From positions 66,240-118,704 of the forward strand of contig JAKLIG010000004.1 in assembly GCA_022709735.1 (NCBI GenBank): a stretch of 52,465 nt of DNA, given 5' to 3'. How positions within the stretch are numbered: the first letter of the stretch is position 1; every line of letters starts with the position of its first letter. Below the pieces are notes generated by a model, which saw only the letters and a list, made by a program, of their open reading frames with translations, was not told the origin of the DNA and did no database searches. Positions 1,330 through 49,090 of the stretch are shown here, one piece after another. The DNA is from Patescibacteria group bacterium. GTDB lineage: Bacteria > Patescibacteriota > Minisyncoccia > Moranbacterales > UBA2206. The position numbers were made by a program, and so were the translations under genes.

Positions 1330-4300
1330 TTATATTTTTCGAATCCCTATTTCTATTTTTTTTCCGTCAATCTCAAAAGTTTTTTTAAGATCAACTTCGG
1401 AGATTTCGCCAGAAGATAATATTTCATTCGCCAAAGTTTCTTTGGTGATTAATTTTTTAAGTTCCAAGTTGTTAAAGATCTCTGATTCGCCACTATAAGT
1501 TATTCTGATTCGATTGTCAACTTCATACCCCGCTTCTTTTCGCATTTCTTGAATAAAACGAACGACCTCTCGCGCCTGGCCTTCAAGTTTGAGTCCAGGA
1601 GTAATTTCAGTCTTAAGCTTAACCTCTTCTTCTTGTTTTTTATCAAAAATTACTTCCTTAACATTTAATTCTTCTTTTATAATATTTCTTAACTCCTCGC
1701 TTAATTCTTGCTTCTTAATTCTTACTTCTTGCAAAGGCTGTCTCACTTTTATTCCCGCTTTGGCGCGAAGCTGCAAACCTTCGCTGATTATCGCGCGAAC
1801 ATTTGCCATTTCTTCATTTAACTTTTCATCAATCATTTTTTCATCTGCCAGAGGGAAATTCTCCAAATGTACGGAACAAAAATTGTCATCCCGAACTTGT
1901 TTCGGGATCTCCTCAGAAGATGCTGAAACAAGTTCAGCATGACAACCCGAGAGGTTCCTCCAAATTTCTTCCGCGACAAACGGCGTAAACGGCGCCATTG
2001 ATTTCGCTAAAGTTATCAAAACATAATACAAAGTTTCATAAGCTTCGTTTTTGTCAGTATCATTTTCTGATTTCCAAAATCTCTTTCGGCTTCGGCGAAT
2101 GTACCAATTAGAAAGATTGTCGATGAATTTGGGAAAACATCTGGCCGCGCGCGTGAGCTCATAATTTTCCATATTTGCATTTATCTCCTTAATGAGCATA
2201 TTTAATTCTGAAATTATCCATCGATCCAATAGATTATTTCGACTTTCGACTTTCGACTTTCGACTTTCAAACTTATCTATATTTGCATAGAGAATAAAAA
2301 AAGAATACGAATTCCAAAGCATACGAAACATTCCGCGCACAAGATCAGCTAAATCCGATTCCTTGAAATTCAAGTTTTCTGCCTGCATCACACTTGAAGA
2401 AGTCAGATAAAATCTCAAGGCATCTGCGCCGTATTTTTCCAAAACATAATTCGGGTCAGGATAATTTTTGAGCCTTTTGGCCATTTTCTTTCCGTCTTCG
2501 GCCAAAACTATTCCGTTGACCACAACATTATTATAGGCTCTGGAACTTTTTATTCCCGTAGAAATAAGATGCAAATAATAAAACCAGCAACGAGTTTGAT
2601 CAACTCCTTCAGCGATAAATTCCGCCGGAAATCCCTTTTCAAAAACTTCTTTATTTTCAAACGGATAGTGAATTTGGGCGTAGGGCATTGAACCGCTATC
2701 AAACCAGGTGTCCAAAACATCCGGAATTCTTTTCATCTCGCCTCCACATTTGCATTTAAAAGTTATCTTATCCACAACATGCTTGTGAATATCAGAAATT
2801 TTCTCTCCACTTAATTCTTCTAATTTCTTAACTGAACCGATAACTTTTATCTCTCCGCAATCGCATTTCCAAATCGGCATAACGGATGCCCAAAATCTTT
2901 GCCGAGAGATCGACCAATCACGGGCTGATTCCAGCCAATTGCCAAATCTTCCATTTTTAATATGTGCAGGCGACCAATTTATTTTTTCTGCGTTTTTCAA
3001 AAGATCTTTTTTTATTTTTTCAACATTCACAAACCAAGAAGAAGTGGCATAATTTATTAGCGGTGTTTCACAGCGCCAGCAATGAGGATAGGAATGCTCG
3101 TATTTTTCCTTGGCAAAAAGTAAATTCTTTTTCGCTAAATATTTTATTATTTCCACATCTGTCTTTTGTGTGTCATTTTCCGGTTTCACATGCATTCCGG
3201 AAAAATCTTCCGCTTCCGGTCGGATTATTCCATCCATTCCAACATGCTGAATAAAAGGCAACTTTTCTTTTTTCCCTAAATTCATATCATCTTCTCCAAA
3301 AGCCGGCGCAATGTGCACAATTCCCGTTCCTTCTTCCGTCGTCACAAAATCTCCGGCATAAATTTTCCAGCCGTTTTCATGGTTAGCAAGCTTTTCATCT
3401 TTAGCGTAATAATCAAAAAGAGGCTCATAAGACAATCCTACCAAATGCTCTCCTTTAATCTCGCTCATTATTTCATATTCATTATTCTTAAATACTTCTT
3501 CAAGTCTTTCTTTGGCTAAAATAAAATATTCGTCTCCGGATTTGACCATTACATAGGAAATATTTTTGTTTATAGCTAAAGCAACATTTCCGATAAGCGT
3601 CCACGGAGTGGTAGTCCAAGCTAAGGCATATACTTTAGGCAATTGGTTTTCAATATTTTCATCAACATCAGTCTGAAGATTTTTTTTATAAATATCAATA
3701 TTATCATCCGAAGATGGGTAATCCATTTTTGGAAGCTTATCAATAGAAAACCATCCGATTTTATCTGCTTCATCTGGAACCATATTTTTTGGTTCGCTTT
3801 TCACTTTTACTTCATAGCAGACAGTTTCAAAAAGCCTTCCTTCAAAAATATAAGGTTTTTTAACAAAAGCTTTTAATGATTGAATTTCAACACCCAACTC
3901 TTCTTTAACTTCTCTTTCTACTGCCTCTCTAAAAGTTTCGCCTTTTTCTACCTTCCCGCCTGGCAAGGCCCAAGTAATTTTTCTTCCTTTTTCATTTCTA
4001 TGGATTAATAAAATTTCTCCCTTATCATTTGTTATTAAGGCGCCTACTCCTCTGCCAGTTTTGCCTAGCATATAATTTATTTTAAATTTTGCCACTACCG
4101 ACAAATCCTTCACATCCTTATACCCTTCCGCTACTTCGGATTGAGAAAGAGTTGTTTCGCAGCGCGGACAAATATGCATTGAACGATAGCCTTCATAAAC
4201 CAGACCCTTGTCATAAAGCTCTTTGAAAACCCACCAAACTGATTCCATATAGGACAGATCCATTGTTTTATAGGCATTTTCCATATCCGCCCAACGCCCG

Positions 4301-4713
4301 AAGCGCCTAATGGTTTTTTTCCAATCTGCCACATATTCCAAAACCTTTGACCGACAAAGTTCGTTGAATTTATCCACGCCTAATTTTTCAATATCTTTTT
4401 TCGCCTTTGAGCCTAATTCTTTTTCGACAATGTTTTCAATTGGAAGTCCATGACAATCCCAACCCCAAACTCGCGGAACATATCGTCCTTTCATTGTCCA
4501 AAATCTCGGTACAATATCTTTCATTGCACTGCCAACAAGATGACCATAATGGGGAGAGCCGGTGGCAAACGGCGGCCCATCATAAAAAGTATAAAGCGGA
4601 CAATCTTTTCGATTCTCCACTGACTTTTCAAATATTTTATTCTCTTCCCAAAAATTTAAAATTCCCTTTTCCATTTCAGGGAAATTCATTTTGGAATCTA
4701 CTTTCTTAAACAT
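1330..4713 (-). CDS. ileS: isoleucyl-tRNA synthetase (type 2, eukaryote-like) with an internal Nudix domain and repeat-derived inserts
   Basis: DGPPFATGSPHYGH (HIGH), KMAKR (KMSKS-like), the WTTTPWT editing motif and GTGIVHIAPAFGEDD. Continuous 1127-aa ORF. Confidence 0.95.
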   Translation of the reverse strand: MFKKVDSKMNFPEMEKGILNFWEENKIFEKSVENRKDCPLYTFYDGPPFATGSPHYGHLVGSAMKDIVPRFWTMKGRYVPRVWGWDCHGLPIENIVEKELGSKAKKDIEKLGVDKFNELCRSKVLEYVADWKKTIRRFGRWADMENAYKTMDLSYMESVWWVFKELYDKGLVYEGYRSMHICPRCETTLSQSEVAEGYKDVKDLSVVAKFKINYMLGKTGRGVGALITNDKGEILLIHRNEKGRKITWALPGGKVEKGETFREAVEREVKEELGVEIQSLKAFVKKPYIFEGRLFETVCYEVKVKSEPKNMVPDEADKIGWFSIDKLPKMDYPSSDDNIDIYKKNLQTDVDENIENQLPKVYALAWTTTPWTLIGNVALAINKNISYVMVKSGDEYFILAKERLEEVFKNNEYEIMSEIKGEHLVGLSYEPLFDYYAKDEKLANHENGWKIYAGDFVTTEEGTGIVHIAPAFGEDDMNLGKKEKLPFIQHVGMDGIIRPEAEDFSGMHVKPENDTQKTDVEIIKYLAKKNLLFAKEKYEHSYPHCWRCETPLINYATSSWFVNVEKIKKDLLKNAEKINWSPAHIKNGRFGNWLESARDWSISRQRFWASVMPIWKCDCGEIKVIGSVKKLEELSGEKISDIHKHVVDKITFKCKCGGEMKRIPDVLDTWFDSGSMPYAQIHYPFENKEVFEKGFPAEFIAEGVDQTRCWFYYLHLISTGIKSSRAYNNVVVNGIVLAEDGKKMAKRLKNYPDPNYVLEKYGADALRFYLTSSSVMQAENLNFKESDLADLVRGMFRMLWNSYSFFILYANIDKFESRKSKVESRNNLLDRWIISELNMLIKEINANMENYELTRAARCFPKFIDNLSNWYIRRSRKRFWKSENDTDKNEAYETLYYVLITLAKSMAPFTPFVAEEIWRNLSGCHAELVSASSEEIPKQVRDDNFCSVHLENFPLADEKMIDEKLNEEMANVRAIISEGLQLRAKAGIKVRQPLQEVRIKKQELSEELRNIIKEELNVKEVIFDKKQEEEVKLKTEITPGLKLEGQAREVVRFIQEMRKEAGYEVDNRIRITYSGESEIFNNLELKKLITKETLANEILSSGEISEVDLKKTFEIDGKKIEIGIRKI
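1885..1943. repeat. GTCAT...ATGAC palindromic element in frame in ileS
   Basis: gtcatcccgaacttgtttcgggatctcctcagaagatgctgaaacaagttcagcatgac. Two hairpins (cccgaa/ttcggg and tgctgaa/ttcagca) sit between inverted gtcat/atgac ends. It encodes CHAELVSASSEEIPKQVRDDN. Confidence 0.8.
2241..2268. repeat. heptanucleotide tandem repeat (gactttc)x4 inside ileS
   Basis: Four perfect 7-nt units read directly from the sequence. They encode ESRKSKVESR on the minus strand. Confidence 0.9.
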
Positions 4714-8966: not shown

Positions 8967-9132
8967 AATATTATGCTATAATTTATTTGAAATAAATTCT
9001 TCTGCAAAACCCAAAGGGGCAACCCGGGCTATGAGGAGAAAACGATATTATGAAAGCTTTATTAATTACATTATTTTCAAACCGCTAAATAGAATTTGGT
9101 GGTTTTATTTTATCTCAAATTTTATAATTTTT

Positions 9133-9229
9133 AATTTTGTAATTTTTAAATAATGCTTTAATTTTTAATGTTTAAAAATTCTAATTTAAGATTTATTTAT
9201 AAAATTAAAAATTTAAAAATTCAAAAATT
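9133..9229 (+). repeat. AT-rich ~95-nt repeat, copy 1 (upstream of dnaE)
   Basis: Shares aattttgtaatttttaaataat (22/22) and ...taagatttattta.aaaattaa.aatt...taaaaatt with 49003-49090, in the same orientation. Confidence 0.7.
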
Positions 9230-9233
9230 GTTT

Positions 9234-12200
9234 ATGAAGTTCACTCATCTCCACGTCCACACTCACTACTCTTTATTAGACGGTCTCGCCAAGGTCGACG
9301 AGATTCTTGATCGTGCCAAAGAACTCGGGATGGATAGTTTGGCCATTACTGATCACGGCGTGCTTTATGGCGCGATTGAATTTTATATTAAAGCTAAAGA
9401 AAAAGGGATAAAGCCGATTATAGGCTGTGAAATGTATGTTACGGCCGGAGATTATTTGAGCAAAAATAACACGCAGGAAGATAAAACCCGCTACCATTTG
9501 ATTTTGCTTTGCAAAGATGAGGTCGGTTATAAAAATTTAATGAAACTTATTTCTGTTGCGCACCTGGAAGGATTTTATTACAAACCCAGAATCAACCGGG
9601 AACTACTTCGGAAATATTCCAAAGGGCTCATCGGGCTGTCTGCTTGCGTTGAAGGAGAAGTTCCATCGAATGCCGTAAATGGAAATTTGGAAAAAGCAGA
9701 AAAGCTAGCGCTGGAATATCAAGAAATTTTTGGAGTTGGGAATTTTTATCTTGAAATCCAAAATCATCCTAAATTTGAAAATCAAGCTATCGCTAATGAA
9801 GCGCTGATTAAAATTTCTAAAAAATATAATATTCCTCTAGTTGCGACTAACGACATTCATTATGTAAAAAAAGAAGATAACGAAATCCAAGATATTTTGC
9901 TTTGCATTCAGACTAACCGAAAAGTCACTGAAACTAACCGGATGAATCTTATGGAGTTTGAACTTTATCTCAAAAGCCCAGAGGAAATGGCTGATCATTT
10001 CAAAGATGTTCCCGAAGCGCTGGAAAATACTCAAAAAATTGTGGACAAATGTAATTTGAAAATAAAATTGGGCGAAATCCAACTCCCTGAATTTGATGTG
10101 CCAGAAGGCTACAACGCCGAAACTTATCTTTTGAAACTCACGAAAGAAGGTTTTCAAAAAAAATTCGGAGGCGAGGCAACCGAAGAGCATCAGCAAAGAA
10201 TGGATTATGAACTTTCGGTCATCAAAAAAACCGGCTTTGCTTCATATTTCTTGATCGTCCAAGATTTCGTCAACTGGGCACGGTCGCAAGGGATCGTTGT
10301 CGGACCCGGACGAGGAAGCGCTGCTGGCAGTTTTGTTTCTTATCTTATCGGAATTACTAATATTGATCCAATTAAATATGATTTGCTTTTTGAAAGATTT
10401 CTAAACCCCGAAAGAATTTCGATGCCTGATGTGGATATGGATTTTGCCGATGATCGCCGAGACGAGGTTTTGGAATATGTCCGAAAAAAATACGGCAATG
10501 ATCATGTGGCGCAAATTATCACTTTCGGAACAATGGCCGCGAGAGCTGCAATTCGAGACGCCGGAAGAGCGCTTGGACTTCCCTACGAATTTTGCGACAA
10601 AACCGCCAAAATGATTCCAATGTTTTCTTCCATTCCTGACGCACTGGAGCAAGTAAAAGAATTTCAAGATCTGCAAAAAAATGACGAGGGCGGAAAAAAA
10701 TTAATCGACAGCGCAATGCGCCTTGAAGGCGTAGTGCGCCACGCGTCTATGCATGCTTGCGGAGTGGTCATTACAAAAAATCCCGTAACAGAATATACTC
10801 CGCTCCAAAAAATAATCGGCAAAGGCGATGGAACAGTGACACAATACTCTTCTTCGACCAAATCAAGCTTCGTGGAAAAAATCGGACTTCTCAAAATGGA
10901 CTTTTTGGGACTCAAGAACTTAACCATCATTCAAAATACTTTACGCATAGTTAGAAAAACCAAAGAAATGGAAATAAATATTGATGACATTCCGCTTGAT
11001 GACAAAAAAACTTTCAAACTTCTTCAAACTGCCCAAACCACCGGAGTGTTTCAGCTGGAAAGTTCCGGCATGAAAAGATATCTAAAACAATTGAAACCAA
11101 CTGATTTTGAAGATATTATCGCCATGGTAGCGCTATATCGCCCCGGTCCGATGGATTGGATTCCGGACTTTATCGCCAGAAAACACGGGGAACGGGAAAT
11201 AAAATATCTACACCCGAACCTAAAACCAATTTTGGAAAAAACTTACGGCGTCGCAGTTTATCAAGAACAAGTAATGCAAATCGCCCAATCACTTGCTGGA
11301 TTCACTTTGGGCGAAGCGGATGTCCTTCGAAAAGCGATGGGTAAGAAAATTTTCACGCTCATTGCCGAACAAAAACAAAAATTCGTAGAAGGCTGTATGA
11401 ATCAAGGTATCGCCGGAACAGTCGGTGAAAAAGTTTTTTCTTATATTGAACCTTTTGCCGGATATGGATTCAACAGAAGTCACGCCGCTTGTTATGCGCT
11501 TATTGGATATCAAACTGCTTATCTTAAAGCGCATTTTCCCGCCGAATTTATGGCCGCGCTTCTCACATCTGATCAAGATAATATTGATCGCATTGCGATT
11601 GAAGTGGCAGAGTGTCGAGAAATGGGAATGGAAGTTTTGCCTCCCAATGTCAATGAAAGTTTTGAAGAATTCGCCGTAATAATTAATCCTGAAACCAAGG
11701 AAGAAAAAATTCGCTTCGGACTAAATGCCGTAAAAAATGTCGGGCACACGGTTGCTCATGAAATCGTGAAAGAAAGAAAAAGACGCCTGCCTGCCGGTAG
11801 GCAGGGAAAATTTTTGAGTCTTACTAATTTTATTGAAAGAGTTCAGCATAAAGATCTCAACAAAAAATCAATTGAAGCGCTCTCAAAAGTCGGGGCACTC
11901 GAAGAATTTTCGGAAAGAAATGCAGTTCTGGCTTCGATCGAAAATATCCTAGCTCACAGCAAAAATTTGGAAAAAATAAATAACTCCAGGCAAAACAGTC
12001 TTTTTGGAGAAGCGGATATTAAGCTTCCAGAAATAAAATTAGAGCCTTCTCCTGAAGCTTCTAAAAAAGAAAAGCTGGCTTGGGAAAAAGAACTGCTCGG
12101 ACTTTATATCAGCGATCATCCGGTTCGAGAATTCCAGCAGTATTTGGAAAAAATGGCCGTTCCAATTCGAAATATAAATTCCCAGATGGTCGGGCAAAAT

Positions 12201-12746: not shown

Positions 12747-13294
12747 ATTTTTCTAACTTCCTTCCTTATTTTCTTATATTCCGGCACGGTTTTTTCGACC
12801 AGCGCCCAGAATTTTTTGGAGTGGTTAAATTCGCCGATATGGCAAAGCTCGTGGACGATTATATAATCGCAAAGATTTTCAGGAAGATAGATTATTCGGT
12901 AGCTAAAATTCAGATCTCTCGACTTGGAACAACTCCCCCAGCGGGTTTTTTGATTTCGAATAGAAACTCTACCAATTGAAAAATTATAAACTTCATTAAA
13001 ATAGGCCAGTTTCTTTTCAGCAATTTCCCGCGCCAACTCTTTATATTTCAAATAATCTTTCCTAGTTGCCGGTGGCAGGTTTGATGTTCTATTTCTAAAA
13101 TATTCTAACTTTTCAAGTATCCACTGCGCTTTTTCATGGATAAATTTTTCCACATATTTTTCGCTTAGACACCACGGCACACTCACAACCAAACTGGCAT
13201 CTGTTTTGATCGTAAGGTGCATACATCTCGCTCTCCGGCTTTTTCGAAAAGTATAGGGGATTTTTTGGTTGTTTAATATTATTTCCTTTTGCAT
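12743..13294 (-). CDS. YgjP-like metal-dependent hydrolase (DUF45 family, HExxH)
   Basis: IVHELCHIGEFNHSKKFW zinc-binding motif. 183 aa. Its stop overlaps the dnaE stop (convergent). Confidence 0.8.
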   Translation of the reverse strand: MQKEIILNNQKIPYTFRKSRRARCMHLTIKTDASLVVSVPWCLSEKYVEKFIHEKAQWILEKLEYFRNRTSNLPPATRKDYLKYKELAREIAEKKLAYFNEVYNFSIGRVSIRNQKTRWGSCSKSRDLNFSYRIIYLPENLCDYIIVHELCHIGEFNHSKKFWALVEKTVPEYKKIRKEVRKI

Positions 13295-13328
13295 ATTTTA
13301 ATTATACCATTTTGTGTTTTATTTTTCA

Positions 13329-13494
13329 TTCAGCCTATTTTGACGACGAAACAAATTGAAGTTTGCGAGCGTTAAAAAATTTATTATGGAGCGAAGCGGA
13401 ACATAAATTTTAGCGAGCAAGCTGAAAATTTGTCGGAGACAAAATTGGGCTGAGAGCTCTTTTTGGTACTTTTTCTCGCGGAGAGAAAAAGTAC
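13329..13494 (+). repeat. structured ~170-nt repeat family, copy A (long hairpin plus short GCGG-loop hairpin)
   Basis: ttcagcctattttgacgacgaaacaaattgaagtttgcgagcg...tagcgagcaagctgaaaatttgtcggagacaaaattgggctgagag, then gtactttttctc-gcgg-agagaaaaagtac. Homologous to 23396-23562 and 29995-30168. Confidence 0.85.
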
Positions 13495-13587
13495 AAGAAA
13501 TTATTTTTGCGGAAAAAGAAAGTGGCGAAAAAAGTAATAAAAAAGATCCCATTTTCACAGGATCTTTTTTCTATACTTCAAGTAAAA

Positions 13588-13869
13588 TTACAGAACCGCT
13601 TCCTTAGCAGCTTTTGCCAATCGGAATTTTACTACAGTTTTTGCAGCAATATTGATTTTTGCTCCTGTAGCTGGATTGATTCCAACTCGCGCCTTTCGGT
13701 TAACCTTTACCATTTTTCCGAATCCAGGAAGAATGAAAATTCCACTCTTCTTCACTTCTGAATACGCCATTTCAACAAGCGTATCCATAAAACCGACGAC
13801 ATCCTTTTTTGGAAGTCCGGTTTTTTCAGCTAGCGCTGACATCAGCTGTGCTTTTGTCATTTTTGCCAT
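13588..13869 (-). CDS. hup: HU/IHF-family DNA-binding protein
   Basis: MTKAQLMSALAEKTGL...GFGKMVKVNRKARVGINPATGAKINI, the HU arm signature. 93 aa. Confidence 0.9.
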   Translation of the reverse strand: MAKMTKAQLMSALAEKTGLPKKDVVGFMDTLVEMAYSEVKKSGIFILPGFGKMVKVNRKARVGINPATGAKINIAAKTVVKFRLAKAAKEAVL

Positions 13870-23368: not shown

Positions 23369-23395
23369 ATTCTTAAATGCTTTTGCCCTAATAAT

Positions 23396-23562
23396 TCAGC
23401 CTTGCGCAGCGCGACATTATAAATTCAAGTAAGCTGGCGTTAAGAAATTTATTATGGAGCGTAGCGGAACATAAATTTTAGCCAGCGAACGTAGAATTTA
23501 TTGGCGCGCAAGCTCGGCTGAGAGTTCTTTTTGTTACTTTTTCTTGCGGAAAGAAAAAGTAA
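23396..23562 (+). repeat. structured ~170-nt repeat family, copy B
   Basis: ttcagccttgcgcagcgcgac...aagctggcg...gccagcgaac...ttggcgcgcaagctcggctgagag, then tactttttctt-gcgg-aaagaaaaagta. Ends about 10 nt before the start of the miaB-like gene. Confidence 0.85.
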
Positions 23563-23571
23563 AGGAAAAAC

Positions 23572-24780
23572 ATGAAATATTATATTAAAACATTCGGATG
23601 CCAGATGAATGTGAGCGATTCGGAAAGAATCGCTGGATTTTTGGAAAAACCTCACCTCAATCCCATGCCTACCGGCAGGCAAGCTCTCCTTGGTAAGGAG
23701 AGGAGGTTATTTGTACCTACCAAAGATATCAATGAAGCTGATTTGGTTATTTTCAACACTTGCGGAGTGCGACAAATGGCCGAAGACCGAGTTTATGGGC
23801 AAATACACAATATCAGGAAGCAAGAAGAAAGAAGTAAGAATAAAGGAAAAAGAAGAATTATCATTCTAACTGGCTGCCTCGCTGACAGAAAAGATGTGCA
23901 GAGGAGATTGAAAGACAAAGTTGATTTATTCATACCTATTGATAAATTTTTTAAAATTGAAAATTTAAAATTGATTGAAAATTGTAAATTGAAAATTGAA
24001 AATTTGACTCAAAAAAAACAATCCTGCGACTATCTAAATATTGCACCAAATTATACAAACAATGATTCTGCCTATGTCCCCATCATGACCGGCTGTAATA
24101 ATTTCTGCGCTTATTGCGTCGTGCCCTATGCCAGAGGCCGGGAAATTTCTAGACCAGTTGGGGATATTCTAAAAGAAATTAAAAATCTAGCAAAAAAAGA
24201 TTGCAAAGAAATAATTTTACTTGGTCAAAATGTGAATTCTTATCGATTTATCGATAAGAATTCATCCCTGCCTGCCGGCAGGCAGGCGCCGTTGAAACCA
24301 AAAAAAATAGATTTTCCAAAACTTCTCGACTCTCTCGCCCAATCTTTCCCAAAAATTAATTTTAAATTTCTCACTTCTCACCCCAAAGATTTCTCGGAAG
24401 AATTAATGAAAGTTATCGCTAAAAATAAAAATATTAGCCGGGAAATTCATCTGCCTATTCAAGCCGGAAGCGACAAAATTTTGAAAGCGATGAACCGACC
24501 ATACACGCAAAAACATTATCTGGATCTTATTAAAAAAGCCCAGAAAATAATTCCGGACGCAAGTTTCACGACTGATGTTATTGTCGGCTTTCCCGGCGAA
24601 ACGCAGAAAGATTTTCAAGAATCTTTGAAAGTTTTTAAAAAAGTAAATTTCAATGAAGCGTATATTAATAAATATTCCCCTCGTCCCGGCACCGCTGCCT
24701 ATAAACTTGGCGACCCAATAACTTTGGACGAAAAAAAGAGAAGAGAAAAGGTTTTGCGAAAACTAGTTAAAACACGCTAG
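23572..24780 (+). CDS. MiaB-like tRNA methylthiotransferase (radical SAM), apparently without a TRAM domain
   Basis: MTTase N-domain IKTFGCQMN...NTCGVR, radical-SAM GCNNFCAYCVVP. Ends shortly after the radical SAM core. Carries three repeat-derived inserts. Confidence 0.85.
   Translation: MKYYIKTFGCQMNVSDSERIAGFLEKPHLNPMPTGRQALLGKERRLFVPTKDINEADLVIFNTCGVRQMAEDRVYGQIHNIRKQEERSKNKGKRRIIILTGCLADRKDVQRRLKDKVDLFIPIDKFFKIENLKLIENCKLKIENLTQKKQSCDYLNIAPNYTNNDSAYVPIMTGCNNFCAYCVVPYARGREISRPVGDILKEIKNLAKKDCKEIILLGQNVNSYRFIDKNSSLPAGRQAPLKPKKIDFPKLLDSLAQSFPKINFKFLTSHPKDFSEELMKVIAKNKNISREIHLPIQAGSDKILKAMNRPYTQKHYLDLIKKAQKIIPDASFTTDVIVGFPGETQKDFQESLKVFKKVNFNEAYINKYSPRPGTAAYKLGDPITLDEKKRREKVLRKLVKTR
23666..23702. 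repeat. two adjacent palindromes in frame in the miaB-like gene (PTGRQALLGKER)
   Basis: tgcctaccggcaggca, then ctctcctt-ggta-aggagag. Confidence 0.8.
24267..24286. repeat. perfect 20-nt palindrome cctgcctgccggcaggcagg in frame in the miaB-like gene (LPAGRQA)
   Basis: The sequence is identical to its own reverse complement. Confidence 0.9.
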
Positions 24781-29994: not shown

Positions 29995-30168
29995 TTCAGC
30001 CTATTTCGGCGACGATACAAATTGAAGTTTGCGAGCGTAAAAAATTTACTCATTATTATCCTTAGGGAAGTTTAGTAAATTTAGCGAGCAAACTGAAAAT
30101 TTGTCGGAGACGAAATTGGGCTGAGAGTTTTCTTTTGTTGCTTTTCTTTTGCGGAAAAAGAAAAGCAA
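29995..30168 (+). repeat. structured ~170-nt repeat family, copy C
   Basis: ttcagcctatttcggcgacgatacaaattgaagtttgcgagcg...tagcgagcaaactgaaaatttgtcggagacgaaattgggctgagag, then tgcttttcttt-tgcggaa-aaagaaaagca. Followed by the + strand hairpin agccagaa/ttctggct and a T-run at 30188-30215. Confidence 0.85.
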
Positions 30169-30235
30169 AGAGCCTTTAAATAGTTAAGCCAGAAACAATG
30201 TTCTGGCTTTTTAGTTTGGAAAAATAATTCTTTGA

Positions 30236-38566: not shown

Positions 38567-39133
38567 TTATTTTTTTGGCACTTTTTCCATCATCTCATCT
38601 ACTTGTTTTTTTAGTTCTTCGGCCGTGCCATTATTATTGAGCGTAAAGTCGGCTTGCTTTCCGATTTCACGAATAGAAACTTCTGTGAGCCGACCCTCTT
38701 CTTCCAGAAATTTTTCGAAAGTCGCTTCGCTTTCCCCTTCATTTTGATTTCGAAGTTTTATTCGATCAAAACGTAATTTTAAATCAGCCGCGACATAAAC
38801 TAAGAAAAAATTCTTTCCATATTTTTTTCGAAAAGGCTCAACATCGCCATGCATTCTTATTCCGTCCGCAATAATAATATTTGATCCGTTTTTTTCCATA
38901 TCCCGAATCAGAGAATCAATTATCACTGACGGGCCATATCCTTCTTTGAGTACCAATGCTAATTTTGCTAAATTGTCTCTCGTTACCGGCACATGGATAT
39001 CTTCGAGCGTGCGCCGAAGAATCTTGGAAGTGCCATAATGAATAGCTCCATATTTTTCAATCAAATAATCCGCGGCTGTTCCCTTGCCAGAACCTTTTTC
39101 TCCAATAAGACCGATGATAATTTTATTTGCCAT
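38567..39133 (-). CDS. P-loop nucleotide kinase (dNMP kinase-like)
   Basis: IGLIGEKGSGKGTAADYL Walker A resembling phage-type dNMP kinases. 188 aa. Confidence 0.65.
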   Translation of the reverse strand: MANKIIIGLIGEKGSGKGTAADYLIEKYGAIHYGTSKILRRTLEDIHVPVTRDNLAKLALVLKEGYGPSVIIDSLIRDMEKNGSNIIIADGIRMHGDVEPFRKKYGKNFFLVYVAADLKLRFDRIKLRNQNEGESEATFEKFLEEEGRLTEVSIREIGKQADFTLNNNGTAEELKKQVDEMMEKVPKK

Positions 39134-39230
39134 AATTATAAATGCGACTCTAATTTACGAATTAACACTCGAATGATTCGAATAAATTCGAGACATTCGG
39201 ATGAAAATTCGTGTCATTCGGGTCGCTTAT
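39129..39230 (-). repeat. 102-nt palindromic leader, copy 1 (fused to the kinase start codon)
   Basis: 101/102 identical to 40503-40604. Includes the ATGGC of the start. Internal stems gcgac/gtcgc, acgaatt/aattcgt, ctcgaat/attcgag. Confidence 0.9.
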
Positions 39231-39276
39231 AAAAAACACCTAATAATCCTACCAATAAAATGCTTTTTCGTCAATA

Positions 39277-40081: not shown

Positions 40082-40507
40082 TTAACCTTCTATTTTAATT
40101 CCCATTGATCTCGCTGTTCCAGCGATTATTTTTTCGGCGCCTTCGATATCATTGGCATTGAGATCCGGCATTTTCTTTTCCGCAATTTCTCGAAGTTTCG
40201 CTTTTGTTATTGTTCCAACCTTATCTTTCAGCGGATTTCCTGCGCCTTTTTCTATACCGGCTGCTTTTCTAAGTAAATCAGAGGCTGGCGGAGTTTTGAG
40301 AATAAAAGTAAAGGTTCGGTCTTCAAAAACCGTGATTTCCGCTGGGATAATATCGCCCATTTTGTCCTTGGTCGCTTCATTAAATTTTGTGCAAAATTCC
40401 TGAATATTCAAACCGTGTTGACCCAAGGCTGGTCCAACCGGAGGCGCTGGATTAGCTTTTCCAGCTGGAATTTGAAGCTTAATAATAGTTTTAATTTTCT
40501 TTGCCAT
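40082..40507 (-). CDS. rplK: 50S ribosomal protein L11
   Basis: [39 protein letters not shown] signature. Confidence 0.95.
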
Positions 40508-40604
40508 AATTGTAAATGCGACTCTAATTTACGAATTAACACTCGAATGATTCGAATAAATTCGAGACATTCGGATGAAAATTCGTGTCATTCGGGTCGC
40601 TTAT
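40503..40604 (-). repeat. 102-nt palindromic leader, copy 2 (nusG stop to rplK start)
   Basis: See copy 1. The single difference is attgtaaatg versus attataaatg. Confidence 0.9.
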
Positions 40605-41149
40605 TAAATTTTATGTATCTGTAAAAAGTCTAGTTCTACCGGCGTTTCCCGCCCGAAGATAGAAACCAAAACCTTAATTCTTCCTTTTTCTTCATCCACT
40701 TCGTCCACTTTTCCGTCAAAATCCTTAAATGGCCCATCGATTATTTTCACACTGTCGCCAGATTTTACATCAATTTTATATTTTGGTTCAGCCACACCCA
40801 TTCTTTTCTTGAGCGTTTCGATTTCTCTCGGATCAACCGGAGTCGGCGTAGTTCCAAGTCCGATAAATCCGGTAACATTCGGCGTGTTTCGAACAACATA
40901 CCAAGAAGCATCTGTCACAATCATATCGACAAGAACATATCCGGGATAAATTTTTTCTTCCACCACTGTTCTTTTGCCGGTTTTGATCTTAATCTTTTTT
41001 TCAATCGGCACCATCACATCGAAAATCAAATCCTGCATATCCATTGATTCAATTCTTTGTCGAAGATTTCTCGCTACATTGTCTTCATAGCCAGAGTAAG
41101 TATGGAGAACATACCAAGCTCTTCCATGATGCTGACTTTGTTTAGCCAT
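40604..41149 (-). CDS. nusG: transcription termination/antitermination factor NusG
   Basis: WYVLHTYSGYEDNV NGN domain and C-terminal KOW (VKIIDGPFKDFDGKV). Confidence 0.95.
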   Translation of the reverse strand: MAKQSQHHGRAWYVLHTYSGYEDNVARNLRQRIESMDMQDLIFDVMVPIEKKIKIKTGKRTVVEEKIYPGYVLVDMIVTDASWYVVRNTPNVTGFIGLGTTPTPVDPREIETLKKRMGVAEPKYKIDVKSGDSVKIIDGPFKDFDGKVDEVDEEKGRIKVLVSIFGRETPVELDFLQIHKI

Positions 41150-47983: not shown

Positions 47984-48976
47984 TTATTTGCTAATAAACT
48001 CCGCCATTTCAACTAATCGATTTGAATATCCCCATTCATTGTCATACCAGCCGACAACTTTCACTAGTTTTCCATTTGCCATTGTGAGAGGTAAATCGAC
48101 AATTACGCTGGCTGGATCGCCTTTGAAATCCATTGAAACCAATCCTTCGTCGTTTACAGTTAAAATATTTTTAAGCCCGTTTTTTGAAGCTTCCAAAAAA
48201 GCATTGTTAATTTCGGAAGCGGTCGCTTCTTTTTTAAGATTACAAATAAAATCTACAATTGAAACTGTTGGCGTTGGAACACGAAGAGATATGCCGTCTA
48301 AATTTCCGGCCAGGTGTGGGATAACTTTTCCAACTGTTTTGGCTGCGCCAGTCGTCGTTGGAATAATATTCAGTGCCGCAGCTCGCGCCCTCCGAAGATC
48401 TTTATGAGGCAAATCTTGCAATCTCTGATCATTAGTGTATGAATGTGTCGTTGTCATAAAACCTTTTTCCACTCCAAAAATTTCGTCTAAAACTTTTATC
48501 ATTGGAGCAAGACAATTAGTTGTGCAAGAACCATTGGAAATAATATTCTCTCCTTTATATTCATCCGCGTTTACTCCCAAAAGATAAACCGGCGTGTCAT
48601 CCTTGGCCGGCGCGCTCATCACGACTTTTTTTGCTCCTGCTTCCAGATGTTTTCCTAATTTTTCTTGCGTGTTAAAAATTCCGGTGCATTCCAAAACTAC
48701 ATCTACTCCTAAATCTTTCCACGGCAATTTTTCCGGATCTGGTTCCATAAAATATTTAATCTTTTTTCCATCAACAATCAGTTCTGAATTTTTTTCGTCG
48801 ATTGAAACTTCTTTTTCATATTTGCCATAGGAAGAATCGTATTTCAAAAGATGCGCGGCAGTTTTGAGATCTGTTAGATCATTTATCGCCACCACTTCAA
48901 TACCTTCTTTTCCAAAAGCGATTTTGAGACTCGGTCGGCCAATCCGGCCAAAACCATTGATTGCAAGCTTAATCAT
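47984..48976 (-). CDS. gap: glyceraldehyde-3-phosphate dehydrogenase (type I)
   Basis: INGFGRIGR, SNGSCTTNCLAP active site, WYDNEWGYS. Confidence 0.95.
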   Translation of the reverse strand: MIKLAINGFGRIGRPSLKIAFGKEGIEVVAINDLTDLKTAAHLLKYDSSYGKYEKEVSIDEKNSELIVDGKKIKYFMEPDPEKLPWKDLGVDVVLECTGIFNTQEKLGKHLEAGAKKVVMSAPAKDDTPVYLLGVNADEYKGENIISNGSCTTNCLAPMIKVLDEIFGVEKGFMTTTHSYTNDQRLQDLPHKDLRRARAAALNIIPTTTGAAKTVGKVIPHLAGNLDGISLRVPTPTVSIVDFICNLKKEATASEINNAFLEASKNGLKNILTVNDEGLVSMDFKGDPASVIVDLPLTMANGKLVKVVGWYDNEWGYSNRLVEMAEFISK

Positions 48977-49002
48977 AATTTTTGAATTTTTGAATTTTGT
49001 AA

Positions 49003-49090
49003 TTTTTAAATAATTTCTAATGTTTTAATGTTAAAAAATTAAGAAATTAAGATTTATTTACAAAATTAAGAATTATAAAATTTAAAAATT
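49003..49090 (+). repeat. AT-rich ~90-nt repeat, copy 2 (between gap start and the hypA-like stop)
   Basis: See copy 1 at 9133-9229. Confidence 0.7.

Follow-up and report, generated by a model that had tools for sequence, protein, structure and literature searches.

A lineage-specific family of structured intergenic repeats with a strand-specific fold and a triplex-type tail in Candidatus Moranbacteria

Three copies of a structured element in the window

The DNA studied here, referred to as the window, is a stretch of 52 465 nucleotides from a Patescibacteria group bacterium of the Moranbacterales (assembly GCA_022709735.1, contig JAKLIG010000004.1, positions 66 240 to 118 704). The same sequence makes up part of the JGI metagenome contig Ga0116154_10000136. 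Its genes are housekeeping genes only (IleRS, ArgRS, RNase HII, DnaE, HU, ThrRS, MiaB-like, MiaA, GatB, the nusG-L11-L1 cluster, GAPDH and others). Among dnaE, ThrRS, MiaB and MiaA lie three copies of a structured intergenic element, all on the + strand and separated by 10.1 and 6.6 kb: copy A (13329–13494), copy B (23395–23562), and copy C (29995–30168). These had been noticed in a preliminary description made from the sequence of the window, in which the start of copy B was placed at 23396. Here, we report that the three copies belong to a lineage-specific, previously undescribed superfamily of dispersed structured intergenic repeats of Candidatus Moranbacteria/Parcubacteria, and that selection acts very strongly on the fold of these repeats rather than on their sequence.

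Each copy has four parts: a 7-bp closing helix, P1 (TTCAGCC/GGCTGAG), a long imperfect hairpin of about 128 nt that extends from TTCAGCC to GGCTGAG, a pyrimidine-rich linker, and an A/T-rich tail hairpin of 12–13 bp with a GCGGA loop. In copy A, the long hairpin consists of a variable P2, conserved P3–P5 with a GTTAA/A internal loop, and an apical module with a GCGAAGC mini-hairpin. The minimum free energy of every copy was lower on the + strand than on the reverse strand (Table 1). For copy A, the fold had a z-score of −6.2, and 0 of 200 dinucleotide shuffles folded as well.

The details that the preliminary description had given of these folds were borne out. The outer arm of copy B is unlike that of A and C, but is still self-complementary; copy C carries another apical module, while the stem below it is retained. 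The small hairpin shows compensatory changes (GTAC..GTAC in A, TTAC..GTAA in B, TTGC..GCAA in C), and GCGAGC/GCGAGC of A and C gives tandem G.A pairs where B has GCTGGC/GCCAGC. A small open reading frame (ORF) in the apex, MERSGT in A and B, was considered as a conserved feature and rejected, as it is not conserved in locus L025.

The neighbourhoods of the three copies differ. Copy A is flanked by a YgjP-like gene and HU, both on the − strand, and is antisense to both, as described earlier. Neither the product of the YgjP-like ORF nor that of a spurious ORF running across copy A had an identical protein on record. Copy B lies between the ThrRS stop codon (23368) and the MiaB-like start codon (23572) and is sense to both genes. 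Copy C is located downstream of MiaA (+), in a convergent spacer. A covariance model was built from 48 copies and a hand-drawn structure. When the whole window was scanned with this model with the filters off, no fourth copy was detected.

A family conserved in fold, strand and tail

Related copies were sought by two scans. The genome scan covered one genome per species with the pattern TTCAGCC-N100-130-GGCTGAGAGYTYTYTT and returned 51 loci, of which 44 were in assemblies of Candidatus Moranbacteria/Moraniibacteriota or Parcubacteria, with several loci per assembly. The other seven hits, from other phyla, scored below 15 bits with the covariance model and are chance matches. Applied to the genome-scan loci, the model found 67 copies, 19 of them without the TTCAGCC pattern. 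The metagenome scan relied on the conserved core only (AAATT-N12-CGTWAARAA-N25-55-TTTAG-N13-AATT) and gave at least 117 loci; in the 100 loci that were searched, 103 model hits with E < 1e-8 were obtained. The combined set of 170 members comes from dozens of independent assemblies. There are at least 7–10 copies per Moranbacteria assembly, and the repeats are about 170–210 nt in length. Viral contigs that were scanned contained no family hit.

No known RNA family accounted for the element. An Rfam search, proposed with the preliminary description, found only two tRNAs in the whole window (Rfam 15, gathering thresholds). At E up to 10, region 13250–13600 gave sub-threshold matches only, the best being 22.5 bits against a cut-off of 55; 18 related loci gave tRNAs only. 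A literature search for Moranbacteria repeats returned nothing relevant.

Three copies alone are insufficient for covariation statistics, which became possible with 170 members. In the 67 genome copies, 89.8% of the cells were paired and 49 of the 57 pairs had changed on both sides. The covariation score was 0.441, compared with 0.149 after shuffling (0 of 500 shuffles reached the observed value) and at most 0.095 when the partners were slid by 1–3 columns. The 103 metagenome copies, which had been selected without use of P1, P2, P5 or the tail, behaved alike: 87.3% of the cells were paired, 50 of 57 pairs had changed on both sides, and the score was 0.535 against 0.161 for shuffled alignments (0/500), with slid partners reaching at most 0.110. 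Both alignments were fitted to the covariance model, and the counts lean toward structure; the margin over the shuffled and slid controls far exceeds this bias. Selection on the fold, which the preliminary description had proposed from three copies, was thus confirmed in both sets.

The helices contribute differently. Helix 5, the tail hairpin, was 99.4% paired in the genome copies, and 10 of its 12 pairs had changed on both sides; its outer four pairs co-vary as well. P2 is variable but compensated, while P3–P5 are conserved. The 19 copies without TTCAGCC showed that P1 itself co-varies between subtypes (TTCAGCC/GGCTGAG, CCCATCC/GGATGG, TCGAGC/GCTCGA, CCCACCC/GGGTGG, CCGCC/GGCGG, TCCGCAC/GTGCGG). 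Other conserved features are tandem G.A pairs alternating with Watson–Crick pairs, an asymmetric internal loop of GTTAA opposite a single A, and a U.G pair closing P1. The first pair of P5 was A-U in 33 and G.U in 33 of the 67 genome copies. When GNA triloops were examined as a mark of DNA as opposed to RNA, both kinds of loop were present: GCGNAGC in 39 of 170 copies and GNRA-type loops in 25 of 170. Arms and apical modules are combined differently in different copies, which indicates recombination between copies, that is, a mosaic exchange of modules.

The non-canonical cells were clearly asymmetric, with 264 G.A/A.G against 18 C.T/T.C and 139 G.T against 40 A.C. Hence, the folding strand is the + (sense) strand, in agreement with the strand specificity suspected earlier. 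Moreover, the sense strand gave the more stable fold of the two in 148 of 163 copies under RNA parameters, and in 140 of 163 under DNA parameters.

The tail shows a second kind of order. The commonest linker, Y1 (TTCTTTTT), reads as the mirror of Y2 (CTTTTTCTT), which forms the 5′ side of the tail hairpin. Y1 is therefore a parallel Hoogsteen-type complement (T to A, C to G) of the 3′ purine strand, R (AAGAAAAAG). Likewise, CTCTTTTT of copy A mirrors the 5′ strand of its tail and is the parallel complement of GAGAAAAA. Across variants, Y1 changes together with R. In copy A, and likewise in loci L003 and L019, a T-to-C change in the linker is matched by an A-to-G change in the purine strand. 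In copy C, R is AAAAGAAAA and Y1 is TTTTCTTTT; L049 has AAAGAAAA with TTTCTTTT, and one metagenome variant has AAAGAAAGG with TTTCTTTCC. The linker and purine strand also differ in step between L038 (R AAGAAAA, Y1 TTCTTTT) and its close relative L026 (R AAAGAAA, Y1 TTTCTTT).

The parallel run exceeded the antiparallel one in 49 of 75 distinct linker/hairpin variants, matched it in 22 (mirror-symmetric) and fell short of it in 4. The mean run of a linker against its own R was 7.45 nt, compared to 6.50 ± 0.08 nt against the R of other copies; the observed mean was reached in 0 of 1000 permutations. A run-length table of linker versus purine strand, noisier because of the parsing, showed the same tendency, with 30 parallel against 12 antiparallel fits for 49 informative variants.

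In the tail, the Hoogsteen strand comes first, the pyrimidine strand second and the purine strand last, as in the class IV (pyrimidine-motif) intrastrand triplex of Holder et al. 2015 (PMC4666352), whose definition calls for three consecutive blocks on one strand, a parallel-complementary third strand, stems of 6–15 nt and loops of 1–6 nt. Blocks of 7–9 nt were present in 71 of the 75 variants, with loops of 5 nt (GCGGA) and 1–5 nt (G or GTTAC). By complementarity, the opposite strand has the class II purine-motif arrangement, which can form in DNA but not in RNA (PMC4666352). The sequence pattern and the co-variation suggest that a triplex probably forms in the tail.

The tail of copy B is the most frequent form (48 of 170 elements), and the tail variant of copy C recurs in L025. 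After some copies, extra tail-like units occur in tandem (...TTTTGGGAAAAGAAAAATGGCGAGGAG, then TTTCTCGGCTCGAGAAAAAAGTAAG), as in L004 (4255–4290), L015 (~500–560), L049, L024 and behind copy A in the window, indicating that the tail module can be reiterated. In sequence comparison, the unit behind copy A resembles the 3′ extension ...TTTTTTTGGGAAAAGAAAAATGGCGAGGAG of about 12 other loci.

GC-rich palindromes, CCTGCC(TGCC)GG(C/T)AGGCAGG, were also seen within coding sequence of the window, at 11786–11805 (dnaE), and at 23664–23679 and 24267–24286 (MiaB-like). The pattern has 5 matches against 0.01 expected. In three metagenomic members the same palindrome (CCTGCCTGCC...GGCAGGCAGG) replaces the A/T-rich tail hairpin.

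Table 1. Parts of the three copies and adjoining hairpins in the window
Feature	Position	Strand	Basis or remark
Copy A, long imperfect hairpin	13329..13454	+	fold −55.5 kcal/mol (reverse strand −41.6), model 156.2 bits
Copy A, P1	TTCAGCC 13329–13335 pairs GGCTGAG 13448–13454	+	sequence, fold
Copy A, pyrimidine linker Y1 CTCTTTTT	13457..13464	+	parallel run 8 vs antiparallel 6
Copy A, tail hairpin GTACTTTTTCTC / loop GCGGA / GAGAAAAAGTAC	13466..13494	+	sequence, fold
Copy A, degenerate second tail unit ATTTTTGCGGAAAAAGAAAGTGGCG	13503..13527	+	sequence comparison only
Bidirectional terminator-like hairpin, canonical	13539..13570	.	between copy A and the HU gene; outside the repeat
Copy B, long hairpin (P1 23395–23401 with 23516–23522)	23395..23522	+	fold −57.0 kcal/mol (reverse strand −52.4), model 172.1 bits
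Copy B, linker Y1 TTCTTTTT	23525..23532	+	parallel run 8 against AAGAAAAA, antiparallel 6
Copy B, tail hairpin TTACTTTTTCTT / GCGGA / AAGAAAAAGTAA	23534..23562	+	sequence
Copy C, long hairpin (P1 29995–30001 with 30119–30125), other apical module	29995..30125	+	fold −60.1 kcal/mol (reverse strand −48.3), model 141.8 bits
Copy C, linker Y1 TTTTCTTTT	30128..30136	+	changed jointly with purine strand AAAAGAAAA
Copy C, tail hairpin TTGCTTTTCTTTT / GCGGA / AAAAGAAAAGCAA	30138..30168	+	sequence, fold
Terminator-like hairpin and T-run (context)	30186..30209	+	18 nt past copy C

Gene context, polarity and site occupancy

Solo copies (n = 110) were sorted by the orientation of their neighbouring genes. 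In co-directional spacers, 18 were sense and 20 antisense; 22 were in convergent spacers and 2 in divergent ones, and for 48 one or both neighbours were undetermined. When copies were adjacent, they formed head-to-head doublets (29 cases) as against a single tail-to-tail pair. The doublets lie between convergent genes, have their 5′ ends 14–60 nt apart, and always consist of two different subtypes. Convergent spacers were enriched (22 solo copies and 29 doublets), and divergent spacers, which hold promoters, were nearly empty. In many cases, only 3–10 nt separate the tail from the convergent gene's stop codon.

Non-adjacent copies on one contig were always co-oriented. This holds for the three in the window, for four over 260 kb of CAVZKT010000002.1, and for two or three on each of ten other contigs; there were 0 discordant contigs. 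The GC skew of the sense strand, corrected for gene orientation, was −0.073 (bootstrap confidence interval −0.091 to −0.052), and 64% of the coding bases were on the strand opposite to the sense strand. Within the window, the − strand carries the nusG-L11-L1 operon. Leading strands are usually G-rich and gene-rich. If this general rule applies to the lineage, the negative skew and the minority of genes identify the sense strand as the lagging-strand sequence.

Occupancy of sites varied between relatives. In syntenic loci whose proteins are 72–80% identical, a given spacer may hold a copy in one genome and none in another; the two kinds of spacer have diverged so far that no exact insertion boundary can be drawn. 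Some spacers are shared at 51–69% protein identity and hold different subtypes (between ThrRS and MiaB, downstream of MiaA and downstream of Pth). In L006, the ThrRS/MiaB spacer is occupied in the same orientation, with flanking proteins 51–57% identical, and its MiaA/GatB spacer has a copy of another subtype in the same orientation as copy C.

All-against-all clustering of the ORFs of 45 loci, together with Pfam, yielded housekeeping families only (TrmB-like regulators, ABC and MacB transporters, endonuclease IV, Pth and others). Winged-helix proteins of 260 aa, TrmB-like and paralogous to one another, recurred at six places in element-bearing loci (L014 7109–7888, L020 2908–3687, L024 2339–3229 and 5733–6509, L028 3775–4542, L042 6607–7383), and in two loci they directly adjoin a copy. 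They are the only recurrent DNA-binding family near the repeats, which may be a coincidence.

Nature of the folded molecule

The preliminary description had left a choice between a candidate noncoding RNA and a novel foldback repeat. The strand-specific structure is real, whereas an independent RNA gene is doubtful. It appears to us that the element acts as folded single-stranded DNA, as an extragenic repeat similar to REP, BIME and BoxC, and we would give this a probability of roughly 0.5. An extragenic DNA repeat whose single-stranded form matters is suggested by the polarity, the indifference to the direction of transcription, the lack of a promoter, the avoidance of promoter spacers, the inverted doublets of two subtypes, the mosaicism and the differences in occupancy. 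One strand carries two folds, namely, the imperfect hairpin of about 130 nt with its exchangeable apex, followed by the pyrimidine linker and the A/T-rich hairpin. On this account, a process coupled to replication would place copies in new spacers or keep existing copies alike, and the element would persist only at sites where no promoter is disturbed. The folded molecule would then be DNA, and a trans-acting enzyme would exist.

BoxC (also PIT or TM-ECO), found in E. coli and other bacteria (Hoyne et al. 2000, cited in Holder et al. 2015, PMC4666352), offers close parallels. Like the Moranbacteria element, it is dispersed and strictly intergenic, and it has three consecutive blocks on one strand that can give a hairpin and a third strand, its C-rich strand reading as a pyrimidine motif. 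Both form frequent inverted doublets that always join two different subtypes. Neither is tied to particular gene functions, no promoter or terminator activity is reported, and loci vary between related strains (PMC4666352). However, BoxC is a 37-nt G/C-rich motif, class II (purine motif) on the G-rich strand and class III on the C-rich strand (PMC4666352), whereas the triplex-type part of the Moranbacteria element is A/T-rich, reads as class IV, and is only a 45-nt tail of a ~170-nt element with a 130-nt co-varying hairpin body. BoxC has no strand-orientation bias in E. coli (13 vs 10; PMC4666352), unlike the strictly polar Moranbacteria family. The BoxC/TM-ECO pattern, CCCTCNCCC N3-6 GGGNGAGGG N3 GGGNGAGGG, was not found in the tail, which reads TTCTTTTT-G-TTACTTTTTCTT-GCGGA-AAGAAAAAGTAA.

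REP, BIME and REPIN sequences, mobilised by RAYT (a Y1 HUH transposase), are likewise extragenic, multi-copy, strand-asymmetric imperfect palindromes that fold as single strands. They occur solo or as inverted doublets with specific linkers, are enriched at gene 3′ ends and form several subfamilies per genome. REPs measure 20–40 nt; the Moranbacteria element is about five times longer and has internal loops, exchangeable apices and a triplex-type tail, and its doublets, unlike theirs, are almost only head-to-head. With a multi-helix body of 166–190 nt it falls outside the REP/REPIN unit, and only the doublet habit is common to both. MITEs such as the Neisseria Correia elements resemble it in being 100–200 nt long, non-coding and intergenic, in forming long hairpins, and in varying between relatives. 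Complementarity in the element is not limited to terminal inverted repeats: it spans the entire body, where changes are compensated and the asymmetric loops are conserved. The element also has a conserved tail outside the foldback and a polar orientation. No parent insertion sequence was found in the window or the loci.

Integron attC sites share further traits with the element: they are imperfect palindromes of 60–140 nt conserved in structure rather than sequence, with one active strand and a variable terminal structure. According to Loot et al. 2017, the attC sites of a chromosomal array reportedly all point one way, the strand that folds being on the leading-strand template. A cassette array has a site every 0.5–1 kb, while the Moranbacteria copies lie 2–100 kb apart among housekeeping genes and also occur as inverted doublets. 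No RYYYAAC/GTTRRRY core sites were found, the ends being TTCAGCC...GGCTGAG or another GC-rich P1, and the window has no integrase. Derivation from IS200/IS605 (PATEs) was rejected on two counts: the element has a single long hairpin and a tail rather than subterminal hairpins at both ends, and its folding strand is on the C-rich, gene-minority side, i.e., the leading-strand template and not the lagging one. Readings as 6S RNA, SRP RNA or a retron were rejected too.

The preliminary description held that many copies in both orientations would indicate an ordinary REP- or MITE-type repeat. Much of that picture was found, in that the element is multi-copy, has sense and antisense copies in similar numbers, forms inverted doublets and varies in occupancy. 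Yet it is not an ordinary REP or MITE, given its conserved asymmetric internal loops, swappable apices, co-varying mirror-repeat tail and chromosome-scale polarity. The co-varying triplex-type tail and the replication-linked polarity are undescribed features among structured extragenic repeats.

Several observations weigh against a folded DNA. The conserved U.G closing P1 and the A-U/G.U alternation at P5 are typical of RNA, and terminators on the + strand lie behind copies A and C, as well as behind many others. The folding strand is the leading-strand template, the opposite of IS200/IS605 and not the strand most exposed in replication. By our own geometric reasoning, 1 nt cannot bridge the linker to the hairpin if all 12 tail base pairs are formed; 8–9 triples would need the outer 4 bp to open, or an H-DNA-type folding with the 5-nt GTTAC loop. 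Intact, foldable copies at spacers shared at 51–69% identity point to selection on the individual loci or to ongoing gene conversion. Neither the window (Pfam on 40 ORFs) nor the surroundings of the copies (for RAYT, 8-kb loci around them) contained a gene for a transposase, an integrase, a reverse transcriptase or a RAYT-like protein. Finally, no target-site duplication could be defined in the window and loci, and no direct repeat flanks the copies.

It is possible, though at odds well below even, that the copies are instead paralogous genes or processed products for stable small RNAs. The 5′ end would be buried in P1, the A-rich 3′ end would be sequestered with the U-rich linker in a U.A-U/C+.G-C triple helix giving ENE/MALAT1-like protection from exonucleases, and proteins would use the long hairpin and its conserved internal loop as a binding platform. 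The strand-specific fold with its G.U and tandem G.A pairs speaks for an RNA. So do the purine strand, which is the exact end of the conserved element, the terminators noted above (that behind copy C was already described earlier) and the intact copies kept at the same spacers of distant genomes. Moreover, the pyrimidine-motif triplex can form in RNA, which the purine motif of the opposite strand cannot (PMC4666352).

The signals of transcription, in contrast, argue against a small RNA. An information profile of 99 distinct upstream flanks showed no conserved −35/−10 at a spacing suited to P1 (no position above 0.24 bit). Consensus scans at the three copies agreed with this, and at copy A or B there was no sigma-70-like site with usable spacing. 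Many copies begin 10–25 nt after the canonical terminator of the upstream gene. The argument for an independent transcript that had been drawn from the antisense position of copy A and the terminator of copy C is weakened accordingly. Head-to-head partners may be as close as 14–15 nt. Transcription of every solo copy would run head-on into replication, an unusual arrangement for RNA genes that are expressed, and the copy number, mosaicism and differences in site occupancy resemble those of a repeat.

Slightly less probable still is the specific form in which a triple helix of the pyrimidine motif (U.A-U plus one or two C+.G-C) caps the 3′ ends of a transcribed, exonuclease-resistant RNA family. 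The tail resembles ENE/MALAT1 in two respects: a U-rich strand runs in parallel with an A-rich 3′ tract interrupted by a single G (U.A-U and one C+.G-C), and the purine strand is 3′-terminal. In ENEs, a U-rich internal loop between two stems clamps a distant A-tract, whereas in the tail the third strand is followed by a hairpin after a 1–5 nt connector. With this linker–hairpin architecture and no U-rich internal loop, the tail is not an ENE-type member. To our knowledge, ENEs occur in eukaryotic, viral and transposon RNAs and not in bacteria. The prokaryotic triplexes listed in a 2026 review are those of riboswitches and group II introns only (PMC13541005), so that an RNA with a triple-helical 3′ end would be new for bacteria. 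Such capped RNAs, if real, would be the first bacterial 3′-end triplex of the ENE/MALAT1 kind, backed by three-way co-variation in ~75 variants.

We consider it improbable that the element acts in cis on neighbouring transcripts, either as a REP-like stabiliser of 3′ untranslated regions or as a polar terminator or insulator, in which the long hairpin and U-rich linker would stop transcription running head-on to replication. The position of most copies at gene 3′ ends and in convergent spacers, with tails close to the convergent stop codon, is in keeping with such a role, as are the U-rich tract that precedes the tail hairpin 2–4 nt after the GC-rich P1, and the polarity, which would fit a direction-specific barrier. 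However, sense and antisense copies are equally frequent in co-directional spacers. Some sense copies lie within probable operons (ThrRS-MiaB, infB-rbfA), in which a terminator would do damage, and relatives can dispense with these copies. Ordinary GC-rich terminators already adjoin many copies, and the doublets are head-to-head rather than tail-to-tail, the arrangement that would serve each neighbouring gene directly. When the element was scanned as an intrinsic (Rho-independent) terminator, the consensus called neither the long nor the tail hairpin, only a 5-bp partial one at 13447–13459.

That the copies are chance palindromes of AT-rich DNA or an assembly artefact has practically no probability, although assemblers do struggle with the element at the apex of copy A, since 170 members come from independent assemblies, neither the shuffles of copy A nor those of the alignments equalled the observed values, and covariation in both sets refutes it. 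The assembly break itself was seen in Logan contig SRR5007146_505659 (L170), which is otherwise identical to the window and ends exactly at the copy A apex (13389). The repeat breaks short-read assemblies because this apical module is common to copies A and B.

Genomes of the candidate phyla radiation (CPR) are tiny and tightly packed; nevertheless, a 170-nt non-coding element is retained in many copies by Moranbacteria, its fold preserved by hundreds of compensated changes. Linker, pyrimidine strand and purine strand change jointly, and comparative evidence of a three-strand interaction in nature is seldom as clean as in this data set. Should the folded molecule be DNA, it would be a new and much more elaborate relative of REP and BoxC, whose strict replication-linked polarity makes its mechanism of spread or function testable; if it is RNA, protection of 3′ ends by a triple helix would extend to bacteria. 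The covariance model can be used for annotating the repeats in CPR assemblies, where they explain some of the breaks in metagenome assembly.

Other repeats were observed in the window and the related loci. A palindrome with 31-nt arms (TTGTCATCCCGAACTTGTTTCGGGATCTCCT / AGAAGATGCTGAAACAAGTTCAGCATGACAA, 84% complementary) lies at 1883–1945, and similar palindromes ending in GACAA/TTGTC occur downstream of copies in L002 and L048. The palindrome of the window is inside the isoleucyl/class I tRNA synthetase ORF (1330–4713, −), which also has a NUDIX domain (residues 219–333) inserted in its catalytic domain. AT-rich repeat blocks (TTTGTAATTTTTAAATAAT...) are found in inverted orientation upstream of dnaE (9109–9229) and beside the GAPDH gene (48961–49086), and similar AATTTTCAATTTTCAA-type tracts fill some of the empty spacers in L007 and L028. 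Within the nusG-L11-L1 cluster, a 117-nt direct repeat (39118–39234 and 40492–40608, 97% identical) occupies two of the spacers; it could be a duplicated leader or another repeat family.

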